A DNA stretch of 64,000 nucleotides, taken from assembly GCA_003223395.1 (NCBI GenBank), contig QHUZ01000052.1:24953-88952 (forward strand), written 5' to 3'. Under the pieces are notes generated by a model that saw only the letters and a program-made list of their open reading frames with translations, searched no databases and was not told where the DNA came from. The position numbers were made by a program, and so were the translations under genes. The first letter of the stretch is position 1. Every line of letters begins with the position of its first letter. Source of the DNA: Gemmatimonadota bacterium (GTDB lineage Bacteria; Gemmatimonadota; Gemmatimonadetes; Gemmatimonadales; GWC2-71-9). Of the stretch, positions 4,121-60,117 are shown one piece after another.

Positions 4121-5827
4121 CTAGCGCGACCCGCGGTATCCTGGACCCCGGAGTCCCCGACCCGGACGCGCGTCCGTCATCTGCCCATGCTTCAAAACCA
4201 TGCGCCCATTCACGAACACGTACTCGATGCCGACCGAAGTCTGGTGCGGCTGCTCGAACGTCGCGCGGTCGATCACGGTGACCGGATTGAACACGGTGAT
4301 GTCGGCGTACATCCCGGGTCGCAACAGGCCGCGATCGGCGAGACCGACGCGCTGCGCCGCGAGCGACGTCATCTTCCGCACTGCGAACTCCAGCGGGAAC
4401 AGCTTCAGATCGCGTGAGTAGCGGCCGAGGATGCGCGGAAAACTGCCGTAGGCGCGCGGGTGCGCGGACTGCGTGCCGAGCGGTCCGTCGGGCGCCACGC
4501 CGCCGAAATCGGTATTCACCGCCATCCACCACTGTTTCATCCCGGCCTGCACGTCGGGCTCATTCATGATTGCATAGACTGCGTCGGTGCGATGACCGCC
4601 TTCGGCGAGGACGATGTCGAAGACCGTCTCGACCGTATCCCGATGGTGCATCGCGGCAATCTGGGCGACCGTCTTGCCCTGCATGTAGCGCAACGAATCC
4701 TGAAACGTGCCGGTGATCAGAACGCCGGTGCCGCCGCCCGCCGCGACGAAGAAGCTTTCCGTCTGTGGGTTGACGATTTCTCGGTGCAGCCGGGTGCGGG
4801 TCGCTGGATCGCGCAGCCGGATGAGCAGCGAGTCCCAGCCTCCACTCTCGGCCCACGTAGGAATCGACGCATCGAGTGAGGTCGCGGCGCGGATATACGG
4901 ATACTGGTCAGCAGTCACGTCGAGCCCGGCCGCACGCGCGGAATCGATTTTCGCGAGCACGCGGGGCATCTGTCCCCAGCTTCGACGTCCCGAGAGCTTG
5001 AGATGCGACACCTCGGCCGGAATCTGCGCTTCCTTGGCGATCCGGAAGACTTCGTTCAGCGCCTCGTCGATATGCTGGCCTTCATCCCGCATGTGGGACG
5101 CATAGATGCCGCCGTGCCGGCTGGCGGCGCGCGCGAGCGCGATCAGCTCGTCGGTCTTGGAATAGCTCGCGGGCGCGTATTCGAGCGCCGTCCACACGCC
5201 CAGCGCGCCTTGCTCCATCAGCGTGTCGACGATCGCCGTCATGTGCGCGAGCTCCGCCGGAGTCGGGTCGCGATTCTCATTGCCGACCACAGCGAGGCGC
5301 ACCTGCGTCGCGCCGACGAAGGTCGCGATGTTGAGCGCCACGCGTTGCCGCTCGAGCTGTGCGAAGTAGCCGTTCAAGTCACGCCAGTCTTCGCGGTAAT
5401 GCCATTTCTTCATGGCGTCGGAATCGTCCTGCACCAGCCTGTCGGTGAGCGGCGCGACCGAGCCGCCCTCGCCCGTCACTTCCGTCGTGATGCCCTGCGT
5501 CACCTTCGAGAAGACGCGGTTGTCGATCAGCGCGTTGATCTCGGACTGGCCCATCATGTCGATGAAGCCGGGGGCGACGACGAGCCCGCTCACGTCCACT
5601 GTGTCCTTCGCCGTCGCGGTGCCGAGAAAACCGACTGCAGCGACGCGGTCTCCGCGGATCGCGACGTCGCCGCGGTAGCGCGGGTTGCCGCTGCCGTCGA
5701 TGATCCAGCCGCCCTTCAGGACCACGTCGTAAGGCCCGTCGGCGCTATGCGCCGGCGTTCCCCTCCCGCAGCCGGTGAGCAATAAGAGGAGGAGCAGACG
5801 GCCGATGGCCGATGGCGTTGTTGTCAT
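4121..5827 (-). CDS. D-aminoacylase / N-acyl-D-amino-acid deacylase family amidohydrolase, putative lipoprotein
   Basis: VAPGFID, QGITTEVTGEGGS, HMRDEG, HPRAYGSFPR motifs; ATGA overlap at 5824-5827; LLTGC lipobox. Confidence 0.85.
   Translation of the reverse strand: MTTTPSAIGRLLLLLLLTGCGRGTPAHSADGPYDVVLKGGWIIDGSGNPRYRGDVAIRGDRVAAVGFLGTATAKDTVDVSGLVVAPGFIDMMGQSEINALIDNRVFSKVTQGITTEVTGEGGSVAPLTDRLVQDDSDAMKKWHYREDWRDLNGYFAQLERQRVALNIATFVGATQVRLAVVGNENRDPTPAELAHMTAIVDTLMEQGALGVWTALEYAPASYSKTDELIALARAASRHGGIYASHMRDEGQHIDEALNEVFRIAKEAQIPAEVSHLKLSGRRSWGQMPRVLAKIDSARAAGLDVTADQYPYIRAATSLDASIPTWAESGGWDSLLIRLRDPATRTRLHREIVNPQTESFFVAAGGGTGVLITGTFQDSLRYMQGKTVAQIAAMHHRDTVETVFDIVLAEGGHRTDAVYAIMNEPDVQAGMKQWWMAVNTDFGGVAPDGPLGTQSAHPRAYGSFPRILGRYSRDLKLFPLEFAVRKMTSLAAQRVGLADRGLLRPGMYADITVFNPVTVIDRATFEQPHQTSVGIEYVFVNGRMVLKHGQMTDARPGRGLRGPGYRGSR
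5797..5817 (-). repeat. 3 x 7-bp tandem array in signal-peptide n-region
   Basis: gacggcc gatggcc gatggcg. Confidence 0.45.
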
Positions 5828-7206
5828 TTCCATGTCGCTCTCAGGGAGTCCGGCCGGATCATCCGGCCGCGGATCATGACCAGCGCGATGTTGCGCGTGG
5901 CCGCGATGTTGCTGATGGGGTTGCCGTTGAGCACCACGAGGTCGGCGACTTTGCCGGGCGCGAGCATGCCGAGTGAATCCGCATGCAACAGCTGCGCGCC
6001 GCGGCGCGTGGCGGCGGTGATCGCTTCGAGCGGCGTGAGCCCGGCGCCGACCAGCAGCGCCATCTCTTCGTGCAGCGAATACCCGGGAATCAGCAGTTGA
6101 TTGGCGGCGTCCGAGCCCGCCGCAATCGCGCCGCCGGCCCGCTTGTACTCGCGGACGAATTGATCCTGCCGCCGGCGCGAGCGCCGGAACGCGTCGAAAT
6201 CCGCCGAGCGCCATCCGGTGCGGCGCAGCAGGCTGGGCACGTTGCGGACACTCTGGGCGCTCTCGGGCACGTCCTCCATCCCGGGGCGCGTGAGCAGAAT
6301 CGGGTTATCGAGCCGGGCAAGCATGTCGTGCACCACCAGCGTGGGGACGATCGCGACCTTCGTCTGCGCGAGCGCGCGCGCGGTGCGGGCGATGGTGCTC
6401 GAATCGAGGCTCGCCCAGCCCTTTTCTTCAACCGTCCAACCGGTCAGGAAGCTGGTGTGCGCGTTTGCGTAGGTCTGGTCGCCCGTGGCGGCCTGGACGA
6501 CGCCGGCCATGTGCTCGATCGAGATGACGCCCATGCGCGCCGCTGTCAACGCGTCGGTTTTCCCCAGGTGCGCCGCTACCGGTAGATGGAGTTTCTCCGC
6601 CTCGTCGAGCAGCGGCCGCAGCAGGCTTGGCGTGATCTTCGTGTAGACCTTGAGGTAATCCACGCCGGCGACGGCATGTTGATCGACCGCGCGCCGTGCC
6701 TGGTCCGGCGTCGCGACGCCCGTTGCGTTGGGATAGGTCGTCGGCGTGCCGTCGATCATGGCGCCCGCGCTGAACATGCGCGGGCCCAGGATCGATCCGA
6801 GATTCAGCTCGTTCTTGAGCGTGAGCACGGTGTCGGTGCCGCCGTGCAGATCGCGCACGGTCGTGACGCCCCACGCGACGTAGCGTCCCGTCGCCCACCG
6901 CTCCACATGGGCGTGTGCATCGATCAGACCCGGGATGATGGTCTTGCCGACCAGGTTGATGCGCTCGGCGTTCGTCGGAACCGGGATTTCGTTGACGCGG
7001 GCGATCGTTTCGATGTGCCCGTTGCGAATGATGATCAGGGCGTCCCGCTTCGGCGCGCCACCCGCACCGTCGATCAGCGTCGCGCCCTCGAGCGCGATGA
7101 CGCGATCCCGGGTGACGCCCAACCTTTCGCCGACCTTGCTGCAACTGGCAACCAGCACGAGTCCCAGCAGAACGGCCGTCCGGCCGTGAGGCCGTCCGGC
7201 CGTCAT
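5824..7206 (-). CDS. amidohydrolase family protein, putative lipoprotein
   Basis: IIPGLIDAHAH, SIEH, AGSDA, GKVADLVVL motifs; LVASC lipobox. Confidence 0.85.
   Translation of the reverse strand: MTAGRPHGRTAVLLGLVLVASCSKVGERLGVTRDRVIALEGATLIDGAGGAPKRDALIIIRNGHIETIARVNEIPVPTNAERINLVGKTIIPGLIDAHAHVERWATGRYVAWGVTTVRDLHGGTDTVLTLKNELNLGSILGPRMFSAGAMIDGTPTTYPNATGVATPDQARRAVDQHAVAGVDYLKVYTKITPSLLRPLLDEAEKLHLPVAAHLGKTDALTAARMGVISIEHMAGVVQAATGDQTYANAHTSFLTGWTVEEKGWASLDSSTIARTARALAQTKVAIVPTLVVHDMLARLDNPILLTRPGMEDVPESAQSVRNVPSLLRRTGWRSADFDAFRRSRRRQDQFVREYKRAGGAIAAGSDAANQLLIPGYSLHEEMALLVGAGLTPLEAITAATRRGAQLLHADSLGMLAPGKVADLVVLNGNPISNIAATRNIALVMIRGRMIRPDSLRATWK
7173..7204 (-). repeat. 4 x 8-bp tandem array directly after the start codon
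   Basis: cggccgtc cggccgtg aggccgtc cggccgtc, encoding TAGRPHGRTA. Confidence 0.75.
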
Positions 7207-7652
7207 TTCGAATCCGATGACGTGTGGTCGTGCAAGATCCGCCAGCGATCTCCCTGCCGTTGGAGCACCAAGGTAAACGGTCCGCTGGCGACCACCGAAT
7301 CCCGCTTCGACAACTTGAACCGGGCAGTTGCATATGCGAAATCGGGTGTGAGCACGCGCACGCGCAGCTCATCAAACGAAAGCGAATCCCGCGACTTCCC
7401 CGGTGCGAAGTAGTTCGCCTGGTACCGATCGTACATCTTCTGCCAGCCGTACATGACATGACCGCCTGCCATGTAGCTGGTCAACGAGTCGTTCGCGTAG
7501 TCGCCCATGAAGCCGGTGAGATCGCCACGATTCCAATCGGACGCCGAGCGCTGCAGCATCGCGGCGATTTCTTTCGGTGGATCGCCGAGCGGAATTGCGG
7601 GGGCTCGGCACGCGATCAGTGCCACGAGTACGGCGTACGGCGCACGGCGCAC
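7203..7652 (-). CDS. NTF2-like / DUF4440 family lipoprotein
   Basis: AGGAGG-N6-GTG start; WNRGDLTGFM...WRILHDHTS NTF2 signature. Confidence 0.8.
   Translation of the reverse strand: MRRAPYAVLVALIACRAPAIPLGDPPKEIAAMLQRSASDWNRGDLTGFMGDYANDSLTSYMAGGHVMYGWQKMYDRYQANYFAPGKSRDSLSFDELRVRVLTPDFAYATARFKLSKRDSVVASGPFTLVLQRQGDRWRILHDHTSSDSK
7628..7652 (-). repeat. 3.5 x 7-bp GTRCGCC array beginning at the start codon
   Basis: GTGCGCC GTGCGCC GTACGCC GTAC; same unit as at 23771 and 49649. Confidence 0.8.
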
Positions 7653-7671
7653 GATTTGCCTCCTAACGTGG

Positions 7672-7706
7672 CCCGCGGGAGCGTCTCGTCGAGACGCTCC
7701 CGCGGG
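7672..7706. terminator. GC-rich hairpin (terminator-like or REP-like)
   Basis: 16-bp perfect inverted repeat cccgcgggagcgtctc-gtc-gagacgctcccgcggg downstream of the 80-aa gene; no U tract. Confidence 0.5.
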
Positions 7707-7723
7707 TGACATAGCGAACGGTG

Positions 7724-7966
7724 TTAGCGGCGGCGTTTCTTCTTGCCTGCCTTTTTCTTTTTCGCCGGCTTCTTCCGTGCCTTCGGCCGCGCCTTCTTCT
7801 TGGCGGCTTTCTTTTTCTTCTTGGCCTTCGGCTTGGAAGATGGGCGCGAGTCTTCGTCCGGCATCGACGATGGCATCGGCGCAGGCGTGGGCGCCGACGG
7901 GAACATCGGCTCCATGAAGCCCGGTCCGGGCCAACTACTCTCCGTTACATCCATCTGCTCAAGCAT
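7724..7966 (-). CDS. small disordered protein with Lys/Ala/Arg-rich histone H1-like tail
   Basis: AGGAG Shine-Dalgarno; tail KPKAKKKKKAAKKKARPKARKKPAKKKKAGKKKRRR. Confidence 0.65.
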   Translation of the reverse strand: MLEQMDVTESSWPGPGFMEPMFPSAPTPAPMPSSMPDEDSRPSSKPKAKKKKKAAKKKARPKARKKPAKKKKAGKKKRRR

Positions 7967-8102
7967 CGGATCTTCTCCTATGCTGATAGGTGCGGGGGCG
8001 TCGTGGGTGGCCTATAGCTTACCGCGGGATTCAGACCTCGCAAGTGACACGGACTACCGCGTTTTAGGTCCCCGCTGGTGGGGGCGATTGTGACAAGTTG
8101 GC

Positions 8103-8132
8103 TTGACAACGGCATTTAGCCGGACACACATT
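8103..8132 (+). promoter_or_regulatory. sigma70-type promoter, probably leaderless
   Basis: TTGACA-N18-CACATT, then 8 nt to ATG 8141, no SD. Confidence 0.45.
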
Positions 8133-8140
8133 CGCCACCC

Positions 8141-10423: not shown

Positions 10424-10436
10424 ATTTCAGGCGCCC

Positions 10437-11486: not shown

Positions 11487-11492
11487 AGAGCC

Positions 11493-11518
11493 TAAGTATT
11501 TAATTTTTATCATCTTAC
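11493..11518. promoter_or_regulatory. AT-rich gyrA upstream element, IHF-like site
   Basis: taagtatttaatt matches the reverse IHF consensus YAANNNNTTGATW with one mismatch. Confidence 0.3.
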
Positions 11519-11540
11519 ACCTCTCCGATACCGATCTCAC

Positions 11541-21348: not shown

Positions 21349-22156
21349 TACGGCGGCGGAGGGCGGCGAGAGGCGGCGAATGGCGGCAAAGGCTGTGCTG
21401 GTGGCTGGCGTGGGAATTCTAGCGACAGCGGCGATGAATTTGCCGCCCTCCGCCGTCCTTCGCCGCCTCTCGCCGCCCGACATTCACTCAGAGTACGTCA
21501 AGTTCCTCTCCGGCAAGGACACAGTGACGGCCTACATCGCCTACCCCGAGCGCCCGCAACCGGCGCCTGCGGTGATCGTCATCCACGAGATCTTCGGCAT
21601 GTCGGATTTCATCCGGCAGACGACCGAACAGCTGGCGAAGGATGGTTTCGTCGCCATCGCGCCCGACCTGTTGTCACGTCGGGGCGGCACGCCCGCGACA
21701 CCCGACTCCGCGCGCAAGCTTATCGCAACATTGAACCCCGATACCGTGACCCAGGATCTCGATGCGACCCGGGCCTATCTCAACAAGCTGAAACCGGTAC
21801 GCTCCGGTGAGATCGGCATCATCGGCTTCTGCTGGGGTGGCGGCCAGAGCTTCCGGTACGCGACGAACACGCCGCAGCTCAAGGCGTTCGTGGTGTGTTA
21901 CGGTCCGAGTCCCAATGCGGCCGACATGGGGAAGATCCGCGCGAAAGGGCTCGGGGTCTACGCGGAGAACGACGCACGCATCAACGCGGGGTTGCCCGAT
22001 GCCGCAGCGGCCATGAAGGCCGCAGGCAAGGACTATCCCTATGCCGTCTATCCGGGCGTGGGGCACGGGTTCTTGCGGACGCGCGAAAAACCGGAGGTGG
22101 CAGACAGCGCGTGGAATGCCGCGATCCGGTTCTTTCGGGCGCAGCTGAAGAGCTAA
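21338..22156 (+). CDS. dienelactone hydrolase family protein
   Basis: HEIFG, GFCWGG nucleophile elbow, HGF; GGAGG SD. Confidence 0.9.
   Translation: MDGNTAAEGGERRRMAAKAVLVAGVGILATAAMNLPPSAVLRRLSPPDIHSEYVKFLSGKDTVTAYIAYPERPQPAPAVIVIHEIFGMSDFIRQTTEQLAKDGFVAIAPDLLSRRGGTPATPDSARKLIATLNPDTVTQDLDATRAYLNKLKPVRSGEIGIIGFCWGGGQSFRYATNTPQLKAFVVCYGPSPNAADMGKIRAKGLGVYAENDARINAGLPDAAAAMKAAGKDYPYAVYPGVGHGFLRTREKPEVADSAWNAAIRFFRAQLKS
21352..21477. repeat. inverted 4+4 array of 10-bp GGCGGCRRRN units, in frame
   Basis: ggcggcggag ggcggcgaga ggcggcgaat ggcggcaaag; 46-bp spacer; atttgccgcc ctccgccgtc cttcgccgcc tctcgccgcc. Confidence 0.85.
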
Positions 22157-23481: not shown

Positions 23482-24515
23482 GGCCATAATTTATCTGTTG
23501 CTGTTCGCAGCGCCCCAAGTGCTGCTGTACCTCTACCTGCGCGAGCGCCTGCCGCTCTCGGCGCGCCGCTGGCTCACGCTCGTCTTTGTCGTCTTCAACA
23601 TCCCCTGGGGCATCGTCGCCGTGCGGATGTTCTCGGGCAGCCTGTGGGGCATCAGCCGCGTCCCCTACATCGCGCCCTGGATCGCGTGGCAGTTTCTGGG
23701 CTGGATATTCTGTGGCCTGGTCACTCTCTACCTGCTAGGCAAGGGAGCGGTGTGGCTGGTGGGCAAAGTCGTGCGCCGTACGCCGTACGCCGTGCGCCGG
23801 GAATCCGAGCAGTCCGAGCAGTCCGGCGCACAGCTCACGGCGCACGGCGCACGCATTTCACGCCGCAAGTTCTTGGTCCGGGCCACATATGCAGCAGACC
23901 AATGCGCTGGGTGCGGATCTAATCGTGCAGACGGGTGACATGATCGACATCTCGCAGTCGTACATCCCGGACTACGTGCGCGCGTTTCGTGATCTCCAGG
24001 CGCCGCTGGGCGTCGTCACCGTGCTCGGCAATCACGATCGGTACACGGGCCAGGACGCCGTCATTCGCGGTGTGAAGGATGCGGGGCAGGTGTTCGTGAA
24101 GAATGGCGTCCACGTGATCGAGCGCGGCGCCGCCGCGATCGCACTCGTGGGAATCGACGACCCCCACGCCTGGCGCGCCGACGATCCGCAGGACGATGAC
24201 ATCGACGCGGCGCTCCGCCTTACTCCATCCGCCAAGGACGCGTTCCGGATCCTGCTCGCCCACCGGCCCGGCGCATTCGACGGCGCCGCGCCGCGTGGCA
24301 TTCCACTCACGCTGGCCGGCCACATCCACGGCGGGCAGTTTTATCTGCCGGTGATCGGTTGGTCCCCTGGCCGGCTGATCACGAAATACGTGATGGGCCA
24401 TTTCACGCAGGGCACGAGTCAGCTCTACGTCAGCCGTGGCATCGGCGTGGTGGGCGTGCCATTGCGGGTGTTTGTGCCGCCGGAAATCGCGTTGTTTGAA
24501 CTACGTCGGGCGTAG
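23480..24515 (+). pseudogene. membrane-anchored metallophosphoesterase (YkuE-like), internal deletion plus frameshift near 23889
   Basis: N-terminal TM part and SRRKFL in one frame; TGD, GNHD, GHIHGGQ in another frame; first DxH motif absent. May be an assembly error. Confidence 0.7.
23771..23852. repeat. inverted 4+4 array of 7-bp GTRCGCC units, in frame
   Basis: gtgcgcc gtacgcc gtacgcc gtgcgcc; 26-bp spacer; ggcgcac agctcac ggcgcac ggcgcac. Confidence 0.85.
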
Positions 24516-44335: not shown

Positions 44336-44381
44336 TCGGATGGTTGTGTGCTAAGGTACTGCTCTAACTAGATTTTGCGCA

Positions 44382-46061
44382 ATGAAATCTACAATTCCGA
44401 TCCGGATGGTCGTCGCGTTGCTGATGGTCGCGGCCCCCGCGGCCCCGGCGGCCCCCGCGGCCCCCGCGCTGACCGCGCAAGCGACGCGACCCGTCGAAGT
44501 GCGGCTCGACTCGATCTTCGCTGCGTGGAATTCCGACACGTCGGCTGGTTGTGTGCTCGGAGTCGCGCAAAACGGGAATACGGTCATCGAGCGTGCCTGG
44601 GGAAGAGCGGACATCGAGCGCGGGGTCGCGCTCACGCCCGCGAGCATTCTCGAAGCGGGCTCGGTTTCCAAACAGTTCACAGCGGCCGCCGTGTTGTTGC
44701 TGGCGCGTGACGGGCGACTGACACTCGACGACGAGATTCACCGCTGGCTGCCGGAGTTGCCGGACTACGGGACACCGGTCACGCTGCGCCAGTTGCTGCA
44801 TCACACCTCAGGAATGCGGGACTGGGGCTCCATCGCCGCCATTGAAGGCTGGCCTCGCAATACGCGCGCGCTGGATCACGCGTACGTGTTGGCGATCACG
44901 CGCCGTTTGCGCGAGCTCAACTTCCCGCCCGGCAGCGAATACGACTACAGCAACACCAACTTCAACCTGCTCGCGATGGTCGTGGAGCGCGCCTCCGGCA
45001 AACCGTTCCCCACCTTCACCCGGGAACGGATCTTCGTTCCGCTCGGCATGACCCACAGCAGCTGGCGGGACGACGCCACACGTCTGGTGAAAGGACGCGC
45101 GCTGTCGTATTCGCTGCTCGACGGAGCGTGGCATAGCGAACGCGCAATCGAAAGCATCTATGGCAACTGCTGTTTGCTGACGACGGTCGGCGATCTGCTG
45201 AAATGGAACGCCGCGTTCGACAGCACGCGCCTCGGCGGTGCCGGATTCCGCGAGGAACAGGAGCGACAGGGCGTGCTCACGAACGGCCGGCGGATCAGCT
45301 ACGCGGCGGGGTTGTTCGTCACCGACTATCGCGGTGAGCCCGTCGTCATGCACGACGGCGCGACCGCCGGCTATCGCGCATTTCTCGCGCGCTTCCCGCG
45401 CGCGCGACTTGCCGTCGCAATGCTGTGTAACGCGGGGAATGTCGACCCTTCCGACCTGGGGTATGCCGCGGCCGCGCAGTTTCTTCCGCCAGCCGCTCCG
45501 GCAGCGCCCGCAGTAGCCCCGACGCGTCGGACGGTCCCACCGGCAGCCATCGCCGATAAGGCGGGACTGTACCGCAACCTTCGTAGCATGGTCCCTCAGC
45601 GCTTCGCGGTGACCAACGGCAAACTGATGATGGAGTCAGGGATCGAACTTGTCCCGCAAAGCCCCACAGTCTTCGTTGCGGCTGCCGGCGGCAATCGTGT
45701 CCTCTTTGATCGTCGGACTGATGGGCACTACGACTTGCGCGTTGCGACACCCACCGCGGACACCGTGCAGGCCGGCTGGGTCGATGCGCCGGACACGAAC
45801 CGGCAGGCCCTCGCCGGATTCGTCGGCTCATACTCCAGCGATGAAGCCAATACGACTGTCGAAGTGCGAGCGGACTCGACGGGCGGCTGTCTGATCCTGC
45901 ACCGCGAACCCGATCTCCACCTGGCGCTGCGACCTGCCTACCGCGATGGCTTCAGAGGTGCGGGCGGGATGTTTGTCTTCGTCCGCAATGCCGCGGGACA
46001 AGTCACCGAGATGCGATACACGACTGATCGAGTCCGCAACCTGCGTTTCGTGCGCCAATAA
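44382..46061 (+). CDS. beta-lactamase-related serine hydrolase
   Basis: GSVSKQF (SxxK), LLHHTSG, YSN, HDG. Confidence 0.9.
   Translation: MKSTIPIRMVVALLMVAAPAAPAAPAAPALTAQATRPVEVRLDSIFAAWNSDTSAGCVLGVAQNGNTVIERAWGRADIERGVALTPASILEAGSVSKQFTAAAVLLLARDGRLTLDDEIHRWLPELPDYGTPVTLRQLLHHTSGMRDWGSIAAIEGWPRNTRALDHAYVLAITRRLRELNFPPGSEYDYSNTNFNLLAMVVERASGKPFPTFTRERIFVPLGMTHSSWRDDATRLVKGRALSYSLLDGAWHSERAIESIYGNCCLLTTVGDLLKWNAAFDSTRLGGAGFREEQERQGVLTNGRRISYAAGLFVTDYRGEPVVMHDGATAGYRAFLARFPRARLAVAMLCNAGNVDPSDLGYAAAAQFLPPAAPAAPAVAPTRRTVPPAAIADKAGLYRNLRSMVPQRFAVTNGKLMMESGIELVPQSPTVFVAAAGGNRVLFDRRTDGHYDLRVATPTADTVQAGWVDAPDTNRQALAGFVGSYSSDEANTTVEVRADSTGGCLILHREPDLHLALRPAYRDGFRGAGGMFVFVRNAAGQVTEMRYTTDRVRNLRFVRQ
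44430..44465 (+). repeat. 4 x 9-bp tandem array in signal peptide
   Basis: gcggccccc gcggccccg gcggccccc gcggccccc = (AAP)4. Confidence 0.7.
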
Positions 46062-46078
46062 GCTTAGTTTTCGGCGTC

Positions 46079-48496
46079 ATGCGAGACACCCCGAGTTACG
46101 ATCCCGCGGCGATCGAAGCGCGCTGGCAAGCGCGCTGGGTGGAGCGCCATACCAACGAGCCCGATCTCGATCGGGCCGCGCGGCCGTTCTACAACCTCAT
46201 GATGTTCCCCTATCCGTCGGCGGAGGGGTTACACGTCGGCAACATGTTTGCGTTCACGGGCGCGGACATCTACGGCCGGTTCAAGCGGCTCCAGGGCTAC
46301 GCCGTGTTCGAGCCGATGGGGTTCGATGCGTTCGGGATCCATTCCGAGAACTACGCGCTCACCATCGGGACGAATCCGGCCAAGCTGATCCCGCAGAACA
46401 TCGCCACCTTCCGCCGCCAGCTCCGCCGGTTCGGCGGGATGTTCGACTGGCGACACGAGCTGTCAACCACCGATCCCGCCTACTACAAGTGGACGCAGTG
46501 GCTTTTTCTCCAGCTCTTCAAGGCCGGGCTCGCGTACAAGAAGCGGGCGGCGGTGAACTGGTGTCCCAAAGACAAGACAGTGCTTGCGAACGAGCAGGTC
46601 ATCGACGGCCGCTGCGAGCGGTGCGACACGCCGGTCGAGCAACGCTTCCTCGACCAGTGGTTCTTTCGCATCACGAACTACGCCGAGCGCCTCCTCGAAA
46701 ACCTCCCGAACCTGGACTGGTCTTCCTCCACCGTCCTCCTTCAGAAGAACTGGATCGGCCGGAGCGAAGGGGCGGACCTCGTCTTCGAGACGCCCAGCGG
46801 CAAGAAGCTCACCGTGTTCACGACCCGTCCCGACACGGTGTTCGGCGCGACCTATTTGGTCCTCGCGCCGGAGCACCCGCTCGTTGACGAGCTCACCGCG
46901 GTCGAGCACCGCACGAGAGTCAAGGCATATCAGCGGGAGGTGCAGTCCAAGGACGTCGTGTCGCGGCGGGTCGGTGAAAAGACGAAGACCGGTGTCTTCA
47001 TCGGCTCCTACGCCCGCAATCCGGCGACGGGTGAAGCGATCCCGATCTGGATTGCCGACTACGTCCTGATGGAGTACGGCACCGGCGCCATCATGGCGGT
47101 CCCGGCGCACGACAAGCGGGACTTCGAGTTCGCCACGCAATTCAAGCTCCCGATCCGACAGGTCGTCGCGGTCCCGGGAGAGACGTTGCCGATTGTCTCG
47201 GAGAACGGCGCGCTCATGAACTCGGGGCCGTTCGACGGCGTGTCGTGCGGCGAGGGGGCGCGCAAGATCGTCGCCTGGCTCGCCGAGCGCGGGCTCGCGA
47301 CGCCGCGCGTCCAATACCGGCTGCACGACTGGTGTATCTCGCGGCAACGCTACTGGGGTCCTCCAATCCCCATCATGTACTGTGAGAAATGTGGCGTCGT
47401 CCCGGTGCCGGAGAAGGACCTGCCGGTCCAGCTCCCCCTCATCGACGATTTCCGCCCCGACGATACCGGAGTGAGCCCGCTCGCACGGCACGAAGAGTGG
47501 TACTTCGTCAAATGTCCCCAATGCGGCGGCAAGGCGCGGCGCGAGACCGACGTCTCCGACACGTTCCTCGATTCGGCGTGGTACCACCTTCGCTACCCGT
47601 CCACGGAATTCCACGACCGGCCCTTCGATCCGGCGAGGACCAAGAAGTGGCTCCCGGTCAGCAGCTACATCGGCGGGAATGAGCACGCCGTCTTACATCT
47701 GTTGTATTCGCGCTTTGTCTGCATGGTGTTGGCCGACCTTGGCCATCTCCATTTCGACACGCCATACCCGAAATTCCGCGCCCACGGCCTGATCGTGAAG
47801 GACGGCGCCAAGATGTCGAAGTCGCGCGGCAACGTCGTCGTTCCGGACACCTACATCCAGCAGTGGGGTGCCGACACCTTCCGCATGTACTTGATGTTCC
47901 TCGGCCCCTTCCAGGAGGGCGGCGACTTCCGAGACTCAGGAATCGTGGGCCAGCGCCGGTTTTTGGAGAAGGTCTGGGCATTGGTGCATGAAGCGGCGGC
48001 GGCAACGGGTCGAGGCGGCGAAGGGGCGGCGGCAGAATCTGTCGCGCAAAAGCTGCATCGCACCATCCGGAAAGTCGGGGCCGACACGGAAGCCCTGCAG
48101 TACAACACCGCGATTGCGGCGATGATGGAGTACGTGAATGAACTGCGGGAGCGGGGAGCGGGGAGTAGGGAGCTGATGGAGCCCCTCGTGATCATGCTCG
48201 CGCCCTACGCGCCGCACATTGCCGAAGAGATGTGGGAGCTGCTCGGACACGACACGTCTGTGTTCGACGCCACATGGCCCACGCACGACGAGCGCTTGGC
48301 CTCAGCGGGCGACGTCGAGATCGCGGTGCAGGTGAATGGCAAGCTTCGGTCGCGTCTCACGGTGCCGCGCGGCATGGCCGAGAAAGACGTGCTCGACCGC
48401 GTGCTCGCGGATGAAGCGGTGAAGAAGTTTGTGGACGGCCAGAAAGTGAAGAAGGTGATCTACGTGCAGGACCGCCTCGTCAACCTGGTCGTTTAG
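46079..48496 (+). CDS. leuS: leucine--tRNA ligase
   Basis: MFPYPS..GLHVGN, TTRPDT editing domain, KMSKS, VQVNGKLR. Confidence 0.97.
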   Translation: MRDTPSYDPAAIEARWQARWVERHTNEPDLDRAARPFYNLMMFPYPSAEGLHVGNMFAFTGADIYGRFKRLQGYAVFEPMGFDAFGIHSENYALTIGTNPAKLIPQNIATFRRQLRRFGGMFDWRHELSTTDPAYYKWTQWLFLQLFKAGLAYKKRAAVNWCPKDKTVLANEQVIDGRCERCDTPVEQRFLDQWFFRITNYAERLLENLPNLDWSSSTVLLQKNWIGRSEGADLVFETPSGKKLTVFTTRPDTVFGATYLVLAPEHPLVDELTAVEHRTRVKAYQREVQSKDVVSRRVGEKTKTGVFIGSYARNPATGEAIPIWIADYVLMEYGTGAIMAVPAHDKRDFEFATQFKLPIRQVVAVPGETLPIVSENGALMNSGPFDGVSCGEGARKIVAWLAERGLATPRVQYRLHDWCISRQRYWGPPIPIMYCEKCGVVPVPEKDLPVQLPLIDDFRPDDTGVSPLARHEEWYFVKCPQCGGKARRETDVSDTFLDSAWYHLRYPSTEFHDRPFDPARTKKWLPVSSYIGGNEHAVLHLLYSRFVCMVLADLGHLHFDTPYPKFRAHGLIVKDGAKMSKSRGNVVVPDTYIQQWGADTFRMYLMFLGPFQEGGDFRDSGIVGQRRFLEKVWALVHEAAAATGRGGEGAAAESVAQKLHRTIRKVGADTEALQYNTAIAAMMEYVNELRERGAGSRELMEPLVIMLAPYAPHIAEEMWELLGHDTSVFDATWPTHDERLASAGDVEIAVQVNGKLRSRLTVPRGMAEKDVLDRVLADEAVKKFVDGQKVKKVIYVQDRLVNLVV
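48147..48174 (+). repeat. 4 x 7-bp tandem array inside leuS
   Basis: gggagcg gggagcg gggagta gggagct, encoding RERGAGSREL. Confidence 0.7.
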
Positions 48497-49599: not shown

Positions 49600-49648
49600 G
49601 CCCCAAGATATCCCACCGCACCTCAAGTGACTACCGGGTAATTACTTA

Positions 49649-49729
49649 GTGCGCCGTGAGCCGTGCGGTGTGCGCCTGACTGCACGTCGAAACCGTCTTC
49701 CGGCGCACGGCGTACTGCGCACGGCGCAC
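49649..49729. repeat. inverted 4+4 array of 7-bp GTRCGCC units, intergenic
   Basis: gtgcgcc gtgagcc gtgcggt gtgcgcc; 25-bp spacer; ggcgcac ggcgtac tgcgcac ggcgcac. Confidence 0.85.
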
Positions 49730-49735
49730 GCCGTT

Positions 49736-49763
49736 GCGACGCTCTATCTCCAGACCGCATCTA
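49736..49763 (+). promoter_or_regulatory. possible ECF autoregulatory promoter
   Basis: GCGAC-N16-GCATCTA upstream of the sigma ATG. Confidence 0.3.
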
Positions 49764-50306: not shown

Positions 50307-50881
50307 TGCACTGTACGATGGAAGATCTGGGAGCCCTGCAGGCGGGTGAGGCGTCGGTGTGGGCACGCCGGCACATCACCACCTGCGCCGCATGTCAGGC
50401 GGAGCTGGAAGGGCTCTACCAGCGAATCGCGCAGCTCAAGGCGCTGCCGGCGCTGCGCCCGCCGCGCGATCGTTGGCCAGCCGTGAAGTCGGCGCTGCGC
50501 GCGCAGCGCTCTCGCCGCCGTCGCACATGGGGCGCATGGACCGGCAGTCTCGCGCTCGCCGCCACGATCGCTGCCGTCTTGCTGATGCAGCCGGGGACGC
50601 AAAGCACGGCTCACGCCGAGCTGACTCACGTGAAGCAGCAGTCGGCAACGCTGGAAGATTCTCTGCAGCGCTACGACACGGACGGCCGCGTTCTGAGCGG
50701 CCATGCCGCCGCGGTCGTGGCCGACCTCGAAGACCGTATTTCCATTCTCGATGGCACCCTCGTGCAGCGCGAACAGAGCGCCCAGGACGCCGAACTTTTG
50801 CAACTGTGGCAGGAGCGCGTTGGCCTGATGCGGGAGCTGATGAACGCCCGCGCGACGCGCGCTCGCTACGTCGGGCTCTGA
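50303..50881 (+). CDS. ZAS-type anti-sigma factor
   Basis: HITTCAAC, a TM helix, ATGA overlap with the sigma gene. Confidence 0.78.
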   Translation: MMHCTMEDLGALQAGEASVWARRHITTCAACQAELEGLYQRIAQLKALPALRPPRDRWPAVKSALRAQRSRRRRTWGAWTGSLALAATIAAVLLMQPGTQSTAHAELTHVKQQSATLEDSLQRYDTDGRVLSGHAAAVVADLEDRISILDGTLVQREQSAQDAELLQLWQERVGLMRELMNARATRARYVGL

Positions 50882-50900
50882 GAGCCTGGAGGAGAGCTAG

Positions 50901-51827: not shown

Positions 51828-51830
51828 GGC

Positions 51831-51891
51831 GGCGGAGAAGGGCGGCGAGGGGCGGCGCAAGGCGGCAAAACACCCGCCGCCCTTCGCCGCC
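51831..51891. repeat. 10-bp GGCGGCRRRN array (4 forward plus 2 inverted) between convergent genes, possible terminator
   Basis: ggcggagaag ggcggcgagg ggcggcgcaa ggcggcaaaa c acccgccgcc cttcgccgcc. Confidence 0.8.
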
Positions 51892-51895
51892 GTAA

Positions 51896-54580: not shown

Positions 54581-54613
54581 GGTCTTCCGAATTTGAGGTT
54601 GTGCGAGATGTCG

Positions 54614-54641
54614 GTAGGGGCGCAGCATGCTGCGCCCCTAC
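54614..54641. repeat. GTAG-type REP palindrome, copy 3
   Basis: Identical to 24528-24555. Confidence 0.9.
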
Positions 54642-54669
54642 AAAAACCCGTGCAACATTTTCGACGTTT

Positions 54670-56589: not shown

Positions 56590-57266
56590 GCGTGATAAGA
56601 CGCCTCCATGGAGACCTTCATCAAGCTCAGACTTTCCAATGCGACCTGGGTGACCTTTTCGGGGGTGTCGCTGTTCCCCCGCTTGACGCAGTCCTTGATA
56701 ATCTCCAGGGCATGAATTGGATGCTCATCGTCGTACTTGGCATGCTCCTCGAGCCACCAGCGACCCCGCGGTCCGATCTTCTCGTTCTTCGCGAGCCCTC
56801 GCAGCGCTTTTTCCGAGATTTTCTGGGCGACCCCTTCGACTGCGTAGTTCGTCGCCGAAACCGCCTGTCCGAATTCGGCATTGCGGCACATCTCGGTCAA
56901 GTAGGCGTGGAATTTCTTGACTGCCGGAATCATCGGTTCCGGTTCCTGGAACCGCTTCTTGTGAACGTTGAAGCCATCGCCCATGGCGCGCCACATCGCG
57001 TCGTGCCGCCGCTCGACGCGGATGTTGTCGGTGAAGAACTCACGCCCCATCGCGGGCGAGCGATCCAGCAGCATCTGCAGCCACTGGGGGAAGTCGCGAA
57101 TGATGGGATAGAACCCGACCAGGAAGTTCTGGATTTGCCCATCCACCAGTTGATTCTCGGATGCGTCAATAATCACCGGTGTATCGAGGATGGCCTGTCG
57201 GCTGGGCTCCAGCGTGGAATCCAGGTCCGCGACCCAAGGTGGGTGCGGGGTCACTTGCACTGACAT
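56586..57266 (-). CDS. heme-oxygenase-like di-iron protein (TenA/PqqC/CADD, HDO superfamily)
   Basis: Metal-ligand pattern E..H (NIRVERRH), E (NYAVEG), H...D..H (HAKYDDEH); GAGGAG SD. Confidence 0.78.
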   Translation of the reverse strand: MSVQVTPHPPWVADLDSTLEPSRQAILDTPVIIDASENQLVDGQIQNFLVGFYPIIRDFPQWLQMLLDRSPAMGREFFTDNIRVERRHDAMWRAMGDGFNVHKKRFQEPEPMIPAVKKFHAYLTEMCRNAEFGQAVSATNYAVEGVAQKISEKALRGLAKNEKIGPRGRWWLEEHAKYDDEHPIHALEIIKDCVKRGNSDTPEKVTQVALESLSLMKVSMEASYHA

Positions 57267-57394
57267 TACGGCTCCTCTCCCGGGCGCGGGCGTGGATAGC
57301 TAGTGTTCAACGTGGGGTGCAATGTACGGGCGAGGATGGAACATGCAAGCATAAGTCGGATAGTGACTTGGAGCACATCAGCAAAATGGGACAC

Positions 57395-57424
57395 TTGACA
57401 AGATATATCGTGTAAGAATATCGT
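57395..57424 (+). promoter_or_regulatory. sigma70 promoter with overlapping palindromic operator, likely PadR autoregulation
   Basis: TTGACA-N18-TATCGT; near-perfect palindrome ACAAGATATATCGTGT at 57398-57413. Confidence 0.6.
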
Positions 57425-57450
57425 CACGTAACATCTCACCAGAGGCAAAG

Positions 57451-58017
57451 ATGGGCGGGAAGTTCGGCTGGGAGGGGTTTGGTTTTGCGTTCGGACCCCG
57501 GGCATGGGGCTTTCGTGGGCGCGGACCCCGGAGTTGGCGGCGTCAGTGGTTCGGCGCCGGCGACATGAAATACGTCATTCTGAAGCTGCTGCGCGACAAG
57601 CCACGTCATGGATACGAAGTCATGAAGGAGTTGGAAGAGCGGATGCACGGCTGCTACACGCCGTCGCCGGGTACCATCTATCCAACCCTGCAGTGGCTCG
57701 AGGACGAGGGACTGGTCGTCGGGCGCGATGTCGAAGGTAAGAAGGTGTACGAAATCACCGACACAGGACGGGCGTTTTTGGACGAGCACAAGGACATCGT
57801 CGAAGAGATCTTCGATCGCGTAACCGAGACCGTGGAGCGCACGGTGGGTGGCTCGATGGTCGAGGTCAATCGGGCGTTGGGCCAGCTCGTGAAGGCAGTC
57901 TACCGGACCGGCTGGAAAGCCGAGACCGATGCGGCCCGCAAGGGCGTTGCTGAGATCCTGGCGAAGGCGACGGCGGAGATCGAGGCGTTAGGAGCGGCGC
58001 CGGCGGGTAAGGCCTAA
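57451..58017 (+). CDS. PadR family transcriptional regulator
   Basis: HGYEVMKELE...PSPGTIYPTL..LEDEG...KKVYEIT. Confidence 0.93.
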   Translation: MGGKFGWEGFGFAFGPRAWGFRGRGPRSWRRQWFGAGDMKYVILKLLRDKPRHGYEVMKELEERMHGCYTPSPGTIYPTLQWLEDEGLVVGRDVEGKKVYEITDTGRAFLDEHKDIVEEIFDRVTETVERTVGGSMVEVNRALGQLVKAVYRTGWKAETDAARKGVAEILAKATAEIEALGAAPAGKA

Positions 58018-59075
58018 CGCAACCACACCCAGATCGTCCCCGCGGGGCAGGTCGACCCCATCCCGAACGACGGCGATGAGGGTGTGATGCTCCACGGGAC
58101 GATGCTGGTGGGCGAGCGCGGGCGCCCCCCACGGTAAATCTCCACCGCCTCAACTTGATCTGCCGCGATCGCCGAGAGCGGCCACCCCGCCCCGTTTTGC
58201 CCGTCGATAAAGATGGCGTACCGGCGCAGCTCAGCCGGCCCGAAGCCTTTTGCCGTTGCGGACGGCGCGCGGGGTAAGGCGAGATCCAGCCGCAACTCCC
58301 GGAGCTCTGCGAGCTCTTCACGGGGAATAAAGACCGAGTTTCCGCCGCTGCAGCGCACCCGCCGTGATGCATGAGCGTCCCACGCCGCATCGAGCGTACC
58401 GCCAAAACCCGCCAGCCGGCCGATCCGGCGATTGCTCAACCCCTCAGGCACTGGGCCGAGCAGCAGCGAGACATCCAGCGCTTCGCCCACCGGTAACGTG
58501 ACCGCGTGCCGCAACGCGAAGTAGCCGCGCTTTCGGACCATGAGCATGAACGTTCCGGCCGTGACGGTCGGCAGGCTGAAGCGACCCAGGCTGTCCGTCG
58601 TCGTCGCGACCGCACCGCCGAGGACCACCACTTCCGCACCCGCGATCGGGCGATCATAGATGTCCGAAACCGTGCCGAGCACGCCGCTGCGGCGGCCGCG
58701 GATCACGATCGGTTTCAGCTCCTGTACCACGGGAGTCAAGCGTGGAGTGATTTCCGCTCCGGCGCTGTCGATGACAACAGTGACTTCGACGGGATTGAAG
58801 CCGAGCCGGCGGAAGAAAAACCGCTCCTCCCCTTGCTCGAGGCTATCGATCTGAAAGCGACCGTCTGCGCCGGTCAGCGTCTTTCGCCCGGCCGTCATGG
58901 CGAGAACCTGGACCTGATCGATCGGTTGGCCCGCGGTGTCGCGCACGATGCCACTGACCGTGCGGAGGTTGATTTGCGCCGGGAGAGCGCGAGCTGGTAA
59001 GAGGACAACGACGGCCGCAAGCGCGAGCGCGTAGCGTGACATACGAACCATTTTTACCCCGCGGCTCGTAGTCAT
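58014..59075 (-). CDS. secreted protein with two carboxypeptidase-regulatory-like domains and a plug-like C-terminus
   Basis: VSGIVRD..GQPI, T.DSLGRF repeats; QVEAVEIYRG; alternative start at 59042. Confidence 0.72.
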   Translation of the reverse strand: MTTSRGVKMVRMSRYALALAAVVVLLPARALPAQINLRTVSGIVRDTAGQPIDQVQVLAMTAGRKTLTGADGRFQIDSLEQGEERFFFRRLGFNPVEVTVVIDSAGAEITPRLTPVVQELKPIVIRGRRSGVLGTVSDIYDRPIAGAEVVVLGGAVATTTDSLGRFSLPTVTAGTFMLMVRKRGYFALRHAVTLPVGEALDVSLLLGPVPEGLSNRRIGRLAGFGGTLDAAWDAHASRRVRCSGGNSVFIPREELAELRELRLDLALPRAPSATAKGFGPAELRRYAIFIDGQNGAGWPLSAIAADQVEAVEIYRGGRPRSPTSIVPWSITPSSPSFGMGSTCPAGTIWVWLR

Positions 59076-60117
59076 GATCCCGCGCGTTCGCGCAGCTCCT
59101 GCAGCGCGCGAGCCACATAGACCCGGGTCATCTGCTTGCGCCAGGATAGATCGAAATCTGTGTTATCCATAGGCTTGGACGGTCGGTAGGCCGCTTCCGC
59201 CGCGGCCGCGATGGCTTCATCGGAGAGTGGTACGCCCTGGAGGGTAGCACCGGCTTCCGGGACTTCCTGCGGATAGCTCGCCACGCCACCCAGGACAATG
59301 CGTGCAGCGGCGACATTTTTTCCTTTCCACTGTATCCAGGCAGCGACGCCGAGCACCGGAAAATCGAACGAGCCACGCCGCCGCAGCTTGTGGTAGACGG
59401 CATCCCAGCTGTTGGGCGCGGGCAGACGCACGTCAACCAGGATTTCGTCGGGCTGCTTGGTGAGGTAATTGATCCCGTCATTGTGGTAGAACCGGCCAGC
59501 CGGGACGACGCGCTCACCCTGCGGTCCTACCAGGCGGTATTCGGCGCCAATCGCGACCATCACCGGAGCGACGTCCGACGAGCTGACGGCCCAGCAGCGC
59601 GGCGACGACGGCGCCACCCAGCAGATGTGGCCGTCCTTCTTCATGCAGAAGTCGATCGACTTCCCCAGCAGCGCGGCGACGACGGCGCCACCCAGCAGAT
59701 GTGGCCGTCCTTCTTCATGCAGAAGTCGATCGACTTCCGCCACTCGTAGCTCTGATTGTAGTAGTTGCAGCGCGTGTCGAGACACAGGTTGCCGCCGAGG
59801 GTGCCCATGTTGCGGAGTAGCGGCGTGGAGACGAGGCGGGCAGCGGTGGCGACGGCGGAATGTTGGAACGATGGAATGTTGGAAAGAGTGCTGAGGGTAA
59901 CACACGTTCCAACTTTCTCACGTTCCATCGTTCGCAGTTCCGGAATCCCCATCAGCGAAATGACTGTCTTCGGCTCCTGATGGCGCCGCTTCATGTTGGG
60001 ATAGAGGTCGGTACCGCCGGCGACGTACATGCCCTCGGGCCCCGCCTCGGCCTTCATCCGCAGCGCCTCGGCGAGTGAGCGCGGTTGGAGATATGTGAAT
60101 GAAGGCAGCCGAAGCAT
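59072..60117 (-). CDS. FAD-binding subunit of xanthine-dehydrogenase-family enzyme, 4-hydroxybenzoyl-CoA reductase beta-like; frame broken by a 74-bp duplication
   Basis: AGGTDL, RNMGTLGGN, Cys-rich insert CNYYNQ...C...C...C, RGSFDFP; removing one repeat copy gives a 323-aa ORF. Confidence 0.8.
59590..59737. repeat. exact 74-bp tandem duplication
   Basis: 59590-59663 equals 59664-59737. Confidence 0.92.
59857..59934. repeat. inverted 4+4 array of 8-bp GGAA-core units, in frame
   Basis: ggaatgtt ggaacgat ggaatgtt ggaaagag; 14-bp spacer; cacgttcc aactttct cacgttcc atcgttcg. Confidence 0.75.

Follow-up and report, generated by a model that had tools for sequence, protein, structure and literature searches.

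The 64,000-nucleotide window analysed here, from the genome of a soil bacterium of the Gemmatimonadota (G000:C109:24953-88952), raises the question of why short tandem arrays stand in and beside its genes with a nearly constant number of units while the unit itself differs from place to place. According to the original prediction, which was made from the sequence of the window, most of these arrays have exactly four units, the units are unrelated between families, several arrays form inverted pairs, and one trans-acting mechanism may generate all of them. In the present study the element was found to consist of about four tandem units of 7, 8 or 10 nucleotides (nt) with family-specific ends, occurring either solo or as an inverted 4+4 pair that makes a stem of 28-40 bp. 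The genome, G000, is a metagenome-assembled genome (MAG) of 3.41 Mb in 123 contigs, with 65.9% G+C and a completeness of 97.6%.

Copy number, pairing and families of the arrays

The arrays of the window were detected both with Tandem Repeats Finder (TRF) and by inspection of the sequence. Their copy number was nearly constant, as had been claimed, but was not exactly four, TRF giving 3.4-4.4 copies at most of the listed positions. The arms at 49649, 59857 and 59903 scored below the TRF threshold; all three can be seen on inspection, and each pairs with its partner on folding.

The peak at four units was also seen genome-wide for periods 7, 8 and 10, and the copy-number distribution was not geometric. 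With overlapping TRF rows removed, the numbers of arrays with 2, 3, 4, 5 and 6 copies were 88, 85, 99, 17 and 0 for period 7, 126, 54, 71, 9 and 0 for period 8, and 151, 33, 24, 0 and 1 for period 10. Periods 9 (373, 135, 19, 3 and 0) and 12 (278, 38, 4, 1 and 1) fell monotonically, and period 6 (52, 75, 33, 9 and 5) had no excess at four. A third-order Markov null (two replicates) also fell monotonically; its four-copy arrays numbered 10 (period 7), 5.5 (period 8) and 2 (period 10), which the observed counts exceed about tenfold. For period 7 the null series was 103, 44.5, 10 and 2.5, so that two-copy arrays were near the Markov expectation.

Pairing and context were analysed on the 259 TRF arrays that had a period of 7, 8 or 10 and a copy number of 3.3 or more. 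An inverted partner, defined as an inverted copy no more than 200 nt away with at least 75% ungapped identity, was present for 65 of the 259, against one in the reversed, non-complemented control. The four inverted 4+4 pairs predicted for the window were borne out by folding as RNA (-30.4 to -87.4 kcal/mol, z -4.5 to -6.7), since none of 200 shuffles folded as well.

The genes called in G000 with a simple custom script (2486 genes, 2.65 Mb; coding and non-coding counts are approximate) contained 130 arrays of this class. Codon shuffling within genes left 10, 11 and 16 of these, and a synonymous-only shuffle, in which the proteins were kept, left 16, 11 and 13. Arrays of period 6, 9 or 12 mostly survived the synonymous shuffle (78 observed vs 62, 76 and 66). 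Because about 90% of the in-gene arrays are lost on synonymous shuffling, the pattern lies at the level of DNA or RNA, in agreement with the original prediction. The four-unit arrays are real and genome-wide.

The largest family, A (GGCGCAC), had 41 loci in G000 at no more than four mismatches in 28 nt, followed by GGACGGCC/GGACGGTC with 38 and 26 loci (counts that probably overlap), and by GGAATGAT and the 10-mer AGGGCGGCGA with 16 loci each. Smaller families were GGGGGAC, GGGGAGC, GGCTGAT and AGGTGTC. Reversed units gave no loci, except for units whose reverse is their own rotation. Several families are thus represented in the window, as had been stated, but not every array there has a unit of its own: the arrays at 7628, 23770/23824 and 49649/49701 all belong to family A, and those at 21352/21442 and 51831 to a single other family (GGCGGCGAAG).

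The members of a family share ends that lie outside the repeat, e.g. TTCC(GGCGCAC)x4GC.TTT in family A (n=41) and a terminal GGCAAAGG variant in family E (n=22), and a fifth unit is absent. These features identify the arrays as discrete elements of about 30-40 nt and not as open-ended microsatellites. The GGAATGAT family was mostly paired (17 of 21), and the other families were mostly solo. Family A was present in 10 of 18 sampled genomes of the genus, and was not found in 12 genomes from two other families of the order (reversed control 0-1).

Gene context and change among relatives

Arrays occupy slots of three kinds: some follow a stop codon immediately, some coincide with a start codon or lie just behind it, and others stand in tolerant loops within open reading frames (ORFs). 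Coding context was scored with a custom codon-score test, a crude measure that classes only 57% of random 30-mers as read-through coding; with it, 83 of 256 arrays (32%) were read through in one frame, 114 had coding sequence on one side only and 35 on neither. Arrays are therefore depleted in ORFs (32% vs 57%), yet are about ten times as frequent there as in the shuffled-gene nulls. On 5' sides the true frame ran uninterrupted across the array and had its start codon at or ahead of it in 64 of 68 cases (wrong frames, 4 and 21). On 3' sides the frame ran into the array in 46 of 46 genes reading toward it, a raw count on which no conclusion is based. The arrays had been described as lying mostly in signal peptides, and this did not hold genome-wide: an enrichment of hydrophobic N-termini was not seen among start-proximal arrays (15 of 43, vs 871 of 2340 called genes).

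Whether such arrays are inserted or replace host codons was addressed by aligning 400 kb of a related genome, G017, with every G000 array that had an orthologous stretch. They replace codons: 14 of 16 in-ORF read-through arrays showed zero length difference, and the other two differed by -1 and -6 nt. The G017 counterpart had the identical unit in three cases and another unit in three, and was not clearly an array in the remaining ten. Among 27 other arrays, indels of at least 12 nt were seen in 10. In-ORF arrays keep length and frame across genomes while their units are imperfect, and in distant orthologues they were not found as identical, conserved coding sequence. Two unpublished genomes, G009 and G018, add extra rows to the comparisons of family A, leuS, folP and the slot at 49610-49757, and no conclusion rests on either.

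The gene folP had equal length in 30 of 30 genomes examined, and its array segment, which covers conserved positions of dihydropteroate synthase (DHPS), aligned gap-free to the solved DHPS structures 6OMZ and 6DAY. A graded series of substitutions runs from HGERLMADGSRL to HGARLTAHGARL, starting with CACGGTGAACGGCTGATGGCTGATGGCAGTCGG (HGERLMADGSR), passing through intermediates that include HGARLAADGAR and HGARLTADGAR, and ending with CACGGCGCACGGCTCACGGCGCACGGCGCACGC (HGARLTAHGAR) in G000 and G017. The commoner folP form is itself periodic with GGCTGAT, a unit that recurs below in the arms of a gene-bearing element on contig C48. In tilS, four 8-mers stand at one site in six genomes, with CAGTCCGA, CGGTCGGA or CGGCCGGA as the unit and constant length.

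For leuS, orthologues were collected by tblastn, and 16 of 19 had the same length, with the GGG tracts kept and the last bases of the unit varying (GGGAGCA, GGGAGCC). G007 has GGGAGTC x4 at this site, which costs three amino-acid changes; G050 and G017 have no array and are one codon shorter. These alignments showed in-ORF change to proceed by substitution, without change of length, against synonymous-codon preference and sometimes with altered amino acids. Such length-neutral overwriting of coding DNA points to a process, be it copying or selection, that operates on the DNA or RNA of essential genes.

At the intergenic slot 49610-49757, 19 relatives were alignable. Where G000 has its family A pair (49649/49701), six relatives (G033, G011, G036, G038, G043, G048) carry GGTGCGT 4+4 hairpins, G039 carries CGTGCGT, G056 and G007 GGTGCGC, G012 GGAGCAC, G061 a 13-mer unit and G008 a long one-sided GCGTGGG array. 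The arms are degraded in three relatives, and the four closest (G050, G017, G052, G041) have a small plain hairpin. The unit has changed in both arms, so that pairing is kept. Likewise, the slot G000:C59:9042/9092 has GGAAYGAT in G000, GGATGGGC in G017, G050 and G052, GGCCGTCC in G035 and GGTTCGGC in G002. These comparisons showed the slot to persist across species, the unit being replaced in all copies and in both arms. As the DNA identity of the relatives to G000 is 74-89%, rising to 95% in short stretches, the comparisons give only a loose indication of which way a slot has changed.

True indels were seen near gene ends, including two clean 30-bp differences between G002 and G000, and indels of 24-30 nt account for some of the arrays near starts or ends. 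In a signal peptide (G000:C79:115614), an arm was gained opposite an existing arm by a 24-nt in-frame change. At G000:C66:106771, a 68-bp pair adjoins a lone GGCGCAC unit that was already present, immediately ahead of a GTG start.

Palindromic sequences were also noted in passing. At several slots G017 has the repetitive extragenic palindromic (REP) sequence TAGGGGCGCAGCATGCTGCGCCCCTA where G000 has a GGAATGAT hairpin. The sequence at G000:C79:47741-47772, about 30 nt long and palindromic, belongs to a REP-like family separate from the tandem arrays, of which dozens of 100%-identical copies on both strands were found in G017, G035, G050 and G052.

PF05635 cassettes and a possible origin of the arrays

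Same-unit arrays no more than 3 kb apart were traced through G000, and yielded several inverted pairs whose arms lie about 450-500 bp from each other and whose unit differs from pair to pair. Three of these pairs enclose homologous ORFs of about 120 amino acids, and a fourth encloses a frameshifted copy. The ORFs matched PF05635, a family of four-helix-bundle proteins (E = 2.4e-32), and weakly bAvd (PF22296). G000 has 13 PF05635 genes, one of which is split and accounts for two of the 14 matches. Every gene has a unit of its own, 7, 8, 10 or 14-16 nt long; about 100 nt separate the first arm from the gene, and about 50-85 nt the gene from the inverted arm. TRF arrays flank 7 of the 13 genes on both sides and 3 on one side; at two more (C48, with the GGCTGAT arms mentioned above, and C106) arrays were recognised by eye, and one (C57) is doubtful. 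The window itself has no PF05635 gene, and the original suggestion to look for small four-helix-bundle genes bracketed by arms proved fruitful elsewhere in the genome, where the same design and, in some families, the same unit were found.

The association was also seen in other genomes. In G002 and G017 together, arrays stand on both sides of five of eight PF05635 genes and on one side of two; in one case in G002, a perfect TTCC(GGCGCAC)x4GC element stands after the gene, the other side of which is lost at a contig end. Among 80 PF05635 homologues in other Gemmatimonadales records, 55 had an inverted array pair, compared with 0 of 200 random G000 windows of the same geometry. Where at least 400 nt was available on both sides (64 of the 80 loci), an inverted pair was present in 47 and at least one array in all 64. 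The period of these arms was mostly 8 (21 loci) or 10 (23 loci), and 49 of 110 arms had 3.5-4.5 copies, with a tail to 15. Orthologous cassettes can differ in their arms, e.g. the 8-mer AAGACGCC in G000:C8 and the 9-mer CGCAGCAGA in G017:C34.

Several cassette units recur as dispersed arrays. Since assignment of units at one mismatch or fewer had a high chance background (119 vs 33 of 251), a stricter count of four-unit copies was used instead; it gave 16 copies in G000 for GGAATGAT, 16 for AGGGCGGCGA, six each for GGCTGAT and AGGTGTC and four for GGGGCGGTAG, with no copies of the reversed controls. Of the G002 cassettes, one has a GGCGCAC arm and another has GGACGGGC arms; dispersed GGACGGGC arrays number 21 in G002, compared with 0, 0, 0 and 4 in the other four genomes. 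GGACGGGC arrays were absent from G000, G017 and G052, where GGACGGCC dominates; arrays of the latter numbered 13 in G000, 10 in G035, 7 in G052, 6 in G017 and 4 in G002. The link between cassettes and dispersed arrays, as read from shared units, is partial.

A separate observation concerns a cassette with 15-nt units (CGTCAAAAGGAAAGG type) that adjoins a tRNA-like sequence (G000:C123:53281-53595 and G017:C8:54413-54727). Its unit, unlike that of most other cassettes, is conserved between the two genomes.

Since the same inverted design of about four units forms the terminal arms of the PF05635 cassettes, the arrays of the window are best read as gene-less pairs and solo arms of such cassette families, which resemble intervening sequences (IVSs). 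This reading is favoured here with a little more than even confidence. ORF-bearing 23S rRNA IVSs of Coxiella and Leptospira likewise have a four-helix-bundle ORF between inverted termini, and the Coxiella report (Warrier et al. 2016, PMC4990558) describes an S23p ORF, a 28-bp terminal stem, three tandem heptamers with one degenerate copy at the 5' side, and cleavage by RNase III. Unlike these, the G000 elements lie outside rRNA, are mostly gene-less pairs or solo arms, and stand in many cases in coding frames. The paired arms may act as double-stranded RNA stems of the kind cut by RNase III in rRNA IVSs, and the four-helix-bundle protein would recognise its own unit.

A possible source of the arrays, put forward tentatively as clearly less than an even chance, is non-reciprocal copying. 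Stretches that are already arm-like would receive the sequence of another family member or of a cassette arm, by gene conversion or template switching, and this would fix both the length, four units being the modal arm, and the genome-specific "dialect". Copying is favoured over independent selection or local slippage because in-ORF arrays are length-neutral and run against codon preference, because units are replaced slot by slot, and because one dialect is matched by a cassette.

A number of points weigh against these proposals. The conversion tract, the donor and the enzyme of the copying step are hypothetical, and homology of 28-40 nt at about 75% identity is a poor substrate for ordinary RecA recombination. 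Five of the 13 G000 cassettes have no dispersed copies; conversely, the largest families, GGCGCAC (41) and GGACGGCC/GGACGGTC (38/26), have no PF05635 gene with matching arms in the G000 assembly, and G017, which is 99% complete, has only four cassettes, none matching its commonest units. A resident cassette is therefore not needed for a family to persist, although G000 and most of its relatives are fragmented MAGs whose contigs often break at repeats, so that cassettes missing from an assembly may simply be unassembled. The match between dialect and cassette rests on one genome, G002, and the gene calls behind the approximate coding and non-coding counts come from a crude script. The 32 of 259 arrays with four GGG or CCC tracts may persist for another reason, quadruplex formation. 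Nor does the quaternary structure explain the number four: the protein profile matched XCC0516 (2GSC, E = 4.8e-35) and 2RLD, both deposited with five chains, and the Xanthomonas one is described as a homopentamer in PMC4990558.

Quadruplex formation has been invoked for similar repeats. A preference for four copies of a heptamer is already in print for GGGAATC in Xanthomonas and GGGGAYT in Nostoc, and Rehm et al. (2015, PMC4692102) ascribe it to quadruplexes; those repeats too are dispersed tandem 7-nt units, show no tie to insertion sequences and lie close to where ORFs begin or end. If the present arrays were quadruplex-forming simple sequence repeats (SSRs), four units would be kept since an intramolecular G-quadruplex needs four G-tracts. 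The arrays in leuS and at G000:C79:100574 would fit, as both hold GGG tracts at 7-nt spacing while the loop bases vary between genomes, and the leuS array forms no hairpin. This explanation nevertheless seems unlikely for the class, because it fits only the 32 arrays with at least four GGG or CCC runs. The other 227 lack four such tracts, the largest families (GGCGCAC, GGACGGCC, GGAATGAT) have only GG, the 65 arrays paired with their complement fold as long hairpins that would compete, and the four-unit mode is also seen in cassette arms of 14-16 nt and in units that are not G-rich. The arrays differ from the published heptamers in further respects: most G000 units have no G-tracts, 8- and 10-nt units behave alike, roughly one array in three is read through in an ORF and one in four has an inverted partner. 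Their design is also tied to PF05635 genes, whereas the text of PMC4692102 does not contain the terms Xcc0516, four-helix or intervening. In the literature searched on the PF05635/IVS family names, on short tandemly repeated repetitive (STRR) sequences and on small dispersed repeats, which did not include subscription journals, no link between this protein family and dispersed arrays was found, nor any closer parallel.

It is similarly unlikely that the arrays are operator-like sites evolved in place by selection, in which case each four-helix-bundle protein would be a sequence-specific DNA- or RNA-binding regulator with autoregulatory arms of its own and with the dispersed arrays as its regulon. 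The presence of the gene's own unit on both sides of each PF05635 gene, the position of arrays at gene starts and ends, and the rise of in-gene arrays by point substitutions, including amino-acid changes and rare codons, are all consistent with this possibility. However, selection would have to shift dozens of sites in step whenever the unit changed, the largest families have no resident protein gene, and the period itself changes at one slot (10-mer vs 8-mer), which is hard to achieve by point substitution. A partial parallel to the arrays themselves is offered by the DNA uptake sequences (DUS) and uptake signal sequences (USS) of Neisseriaceae and Pasteurellaceae, which enter ORFs by length-neutral substitution, form inverted pairs between genes and have lineage-specific dialects at orthologous sites. 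Unlike the present arrays, which comprise more than ten tandem-unit families of tens of copies each, they are single 9-12-mers of one family with thousands of copies.

A bolder version of the copying hypothesis, considered improbable, is that DNA is rewritten from a template by a system that lacks a recognisable reverse transcriptase and shows itself in the Avd-like cassettes. The four-unit arm would be copied over any partly similar stretch, also in essential genes such as folP, tilS and leuS, with length and frame kept and a genome-specific dialect imposed. If true, this would be a natural short-patch genome editor and would explain the long-puzzling heptamer and STRR repeats. PF05635 proteins are Avd homologues according to PMC10053308, and diversity-generating retroelements (DGRs) overwrite their target with templated sequence of equal length. 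A DGR as such was rejected, because a reverse transcriptase domain, a template/variable repeat pair and an adenine-specific pattern are all lacking here.

Partner enzymes of other kinds were sought in G000. A search of the 97.6%-complete assembly for the reverse transcriptase domain PF00078 was negative, while control searches had matches in three genomes; the templated repeat addition that had been suggested originally, read as a telomerase-like process, is thus not supported. The nuclease family PF13366 (GxxExxY) also had no match in the genome. Three Y1-transposase-like PF01797 genes are present (G000:C91:8021-8362, C116:13643-13978 and C83:7499-7762), each flanked on both sides by its own ordinary REP-type palindromes, and they look like classical systems of REP-associated tyrosine transposases (RAYTs) that coexist with the tandem-array families. 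No 7-, 8- or 10-nt array of at least three copies was found within 4 kb of them, and a RAYT/REP system was rejected as the partner of the arrays, since ordinary palindromes rather than arrays surround the Y1 genes. The resemblance to REP/REPIN-RAYT systems lies in dispersed hairpin repeats, single and as inverted doublets, with a low-copy gene flanked by cognate repeats; the differences are that the flanked gene here is PF05635 and not a Y1 transposase, and that the arms are tandem arrays and not palindromes.

Two further known classes were rejected. Phase-variable contingency SSRs do not fit, as the in-ORF arrays keep length and frame across genomes. Rickettsia palindromic elements are also found in frame within protein-coding genes, where they are insertions that add residues; the same type of insertion does not apply here, because 14 of 16 in-ORF arrays add no codons and the length of folP is the same across 30 genomes.

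Clustered mutations are known to arise by replication slippage, transient misalignment and hairpin-templated strand switching, and the arrays might be a local by-product of such events, which would create and homogenise units and arms at fragile sites with no copying at the level of the family and no function. This is improbable as a general account, although units within an array and between arms do change together, and the new arm at G000:C79:115614 and the pair beside a single unit at G000:C66:106771 are of the expected kind. One unit with identical non-repeat ends occurs at 16-41 unlinked loci in one genome, copy number is not geometric, dialects are genome-specific, and slippage of a 7-, 8- or 10-nt unit would shift the frame of an ORF, whereas arrays are common in ORFs and leave their length unchanged. 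An origin by chance, or as an artefact of codon usage at high GC, can be dismissed almost entirely: Ala/Arg/Gly-rich peptides at 66% GC do yield GGC/GCG-rich DNA and two-copy arrays are near expectation, but four-copy arrays are about ten times as frequent as in the Markov, codon-shuffled and synonymous-shuffled nulls, and reversed-pattern controls gave 0-1 hits.

Dispersed heptamer and octamer repeats (STRR, Xanthomonas GGGAATC) and the four-helix-bundle proteins of 23S rRNA IVSs are both old, unexplained features of bacterial genomes. The present data provide quantitative evidence for discrete four-unit elements in many families, with a design, and some units, common to the arms of four-helix-bundle genes. 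They also provide such evidence for fixed slots that are maintained while their sequence is swapped, and for coding DNA overwritten at unchanged length against both codon preference and protein conservation. For annotation, this means that array elements make up part of the start codons, signal peptides and gene ends of such genomes.

Arrays of the window and neighbouring genes

Seven of the ten window loci are translated or would be: 7173, 7628, 21352/21442, 44429, 48147, 59857/59903 and, in relatives, 23770/23824. No Rfam family was detected in the window at the gathering score.

On the minus strand, a short GGCCGAT array (5797..5816, x2.4; TRF 5800-5816, 7-mer) lies just 3' of the stop codon of an amidohydrolase gene. 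This gene-end slot has CCGTCCGA x4 in G035, GGCTGAT x2.5 in G052, GACGACT in G050, an 8-mer array in G002 and nothing in G017. A family C array at 7173..7204, also on the minus strand (CGGCCGGA/GGACGGCC x4, 8-mer x4.0), forms codons 2-11 (MTAGRPHGRTAV...) in the lipoprotein-type signal peptide of the amidohydrolase gene, and folds on itself (-29.1 kcal/mol, z -5.5). At equal length, relatives have CGGCCGTC (G050, G017), CGGYCGGA (G052) or CGGTTGRG (G002) at this slot, and G035 has no array and is about 27 nt shorter.

The family A array at 7628..7653 (minus strand; TRF 7630-7653), GTGCGCC x3.4 on the gene strand, starts at the GTG start codon of a lipoprotein precursor (VRRAPYAV...), behind an AGGAGG ribosome-binding site. 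GTGCGTC x3 (G002), a GTGCGTG-like unit (G052) and GTGCGCM (G035) were found at the corresponding slot, and G050 and G017 have no array. A perfect GC-rich hairpin at 7660-7715 (CCCGCGGGAGCGTCTC ... GAGACGCTCCCGCGGG), just 5' of the ribosome-binding site of the same gene, is kept in all five relatives.

On the plus strand, a family E pair has its left arm at 21352..21387 (GGCGGCGRRR x3.6), from codon 4-5 of a dienelactone-hydrolase-like gene and right after the stop codon of the upstream gene, and its right arm at 21442..21477 (10-mer x3.7). The arms flank the hydrophobic core of a signal peptide, fold together (-87.4 kcal/mol, z -6.5), and have the same unit as the arms of the PF05635 cassette on C42. 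In G000, G050 and G002 the arms are 10-mers; G017 and G035 have the 8-mer GATGGGCG, and G052 the 8-mer GGAAYGTT.

The family A pair on the plus strand at 23770..23799 (GTGCGCC x4.3) and 23824..23853 (GGCGCAC x4.3) has TCCGAGCAG x2.4 in its loop and folds at -59.2 kcal/mol (z -6.7). Its slot holds CGTGCGT arms in G050, GGTGCGT arms in G017, 8-mer arms of the GGTTTGGC type in G002, and only the right arm in G035. About 350 nt that follow the pair in these four relatives are missing from G000 (window 23853-23890), and encode the N-terminal part of a metallophosphoesterase (RRQFL... to ...HLSDVHAG); as a result, the G000 metallophosphoesterase gene starts truncated, directly beside the pair.

The plus-strand 9-mer array at 44429..44468 (x4.4), which had been counted as a member of the class, is an in-frame AAP peptide repeat of the ordinary kind in a signal peptide, and stands outside the 7/8/10-nt class; period-9 arrays have no peak at four and are near their codon-shuffled count. 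The serine-hydrolase (beta-lactamase-family) gene that contains it (44340-46064) had no counterpart at this locus in 49 relatives searched, in which the alignments skip from query position 1340 to 3065; weaker matches occur elsewhere in some of these genomes.

In leuS, the array GGGAGCG x3.9 at 48147..48173 (plus strand) encodes RERGAGSREL, has four GGG tracts and forms no hairpin (fold z -1.0). The family A pair of the slot described above (49649..49676 and 49701..49730, the latter GGCGCAC x4.3; plus strand) lies in the divergent intergenic region between a ferritin-like/VIT gene on the minus strand and an extracytoplasmic function (ECF) sigma-factor gene on the plus strand, and folds at -53.5 kcal/mol (z -4.5). 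At 51831..51892 (plus strand), between convergent genes, a family E array (x3.6; TRF 51831-51866) begins 3 nt past the TAA stop codon of a PDZ-domain gene and is followed by about 1.8 inverted units; the whole folds at -48.5 kcal/mol (z -4.9).

The last locus, at 59857..59930 on the minus strand, is a 4+4 pair of 8-mers (GGAAYGWT, family B type) in the ORF of a CoxM-like FAD-binding subunit. Its arms (59857/59903) flank the conserved strand VGTCVTLSTL and fold together (-30.4 kcal/mol, z -5.1), and the unit is close to that of the PF05635 cassette arms on C69. The slot has GGCGGATN arms and is 21 nt longer in G050, G017 and G052, and G035 has a CCGTCCGA right arm. The same gene contains a perfect 74-bp tandem duplication (59590-59738; 2.0 copies, 100% match) that would shift the frame. 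As the stretch is single-copy in all five relatives searched (overlapping subject coordinates), the duplication is either a very recent event or an assembly artefact.

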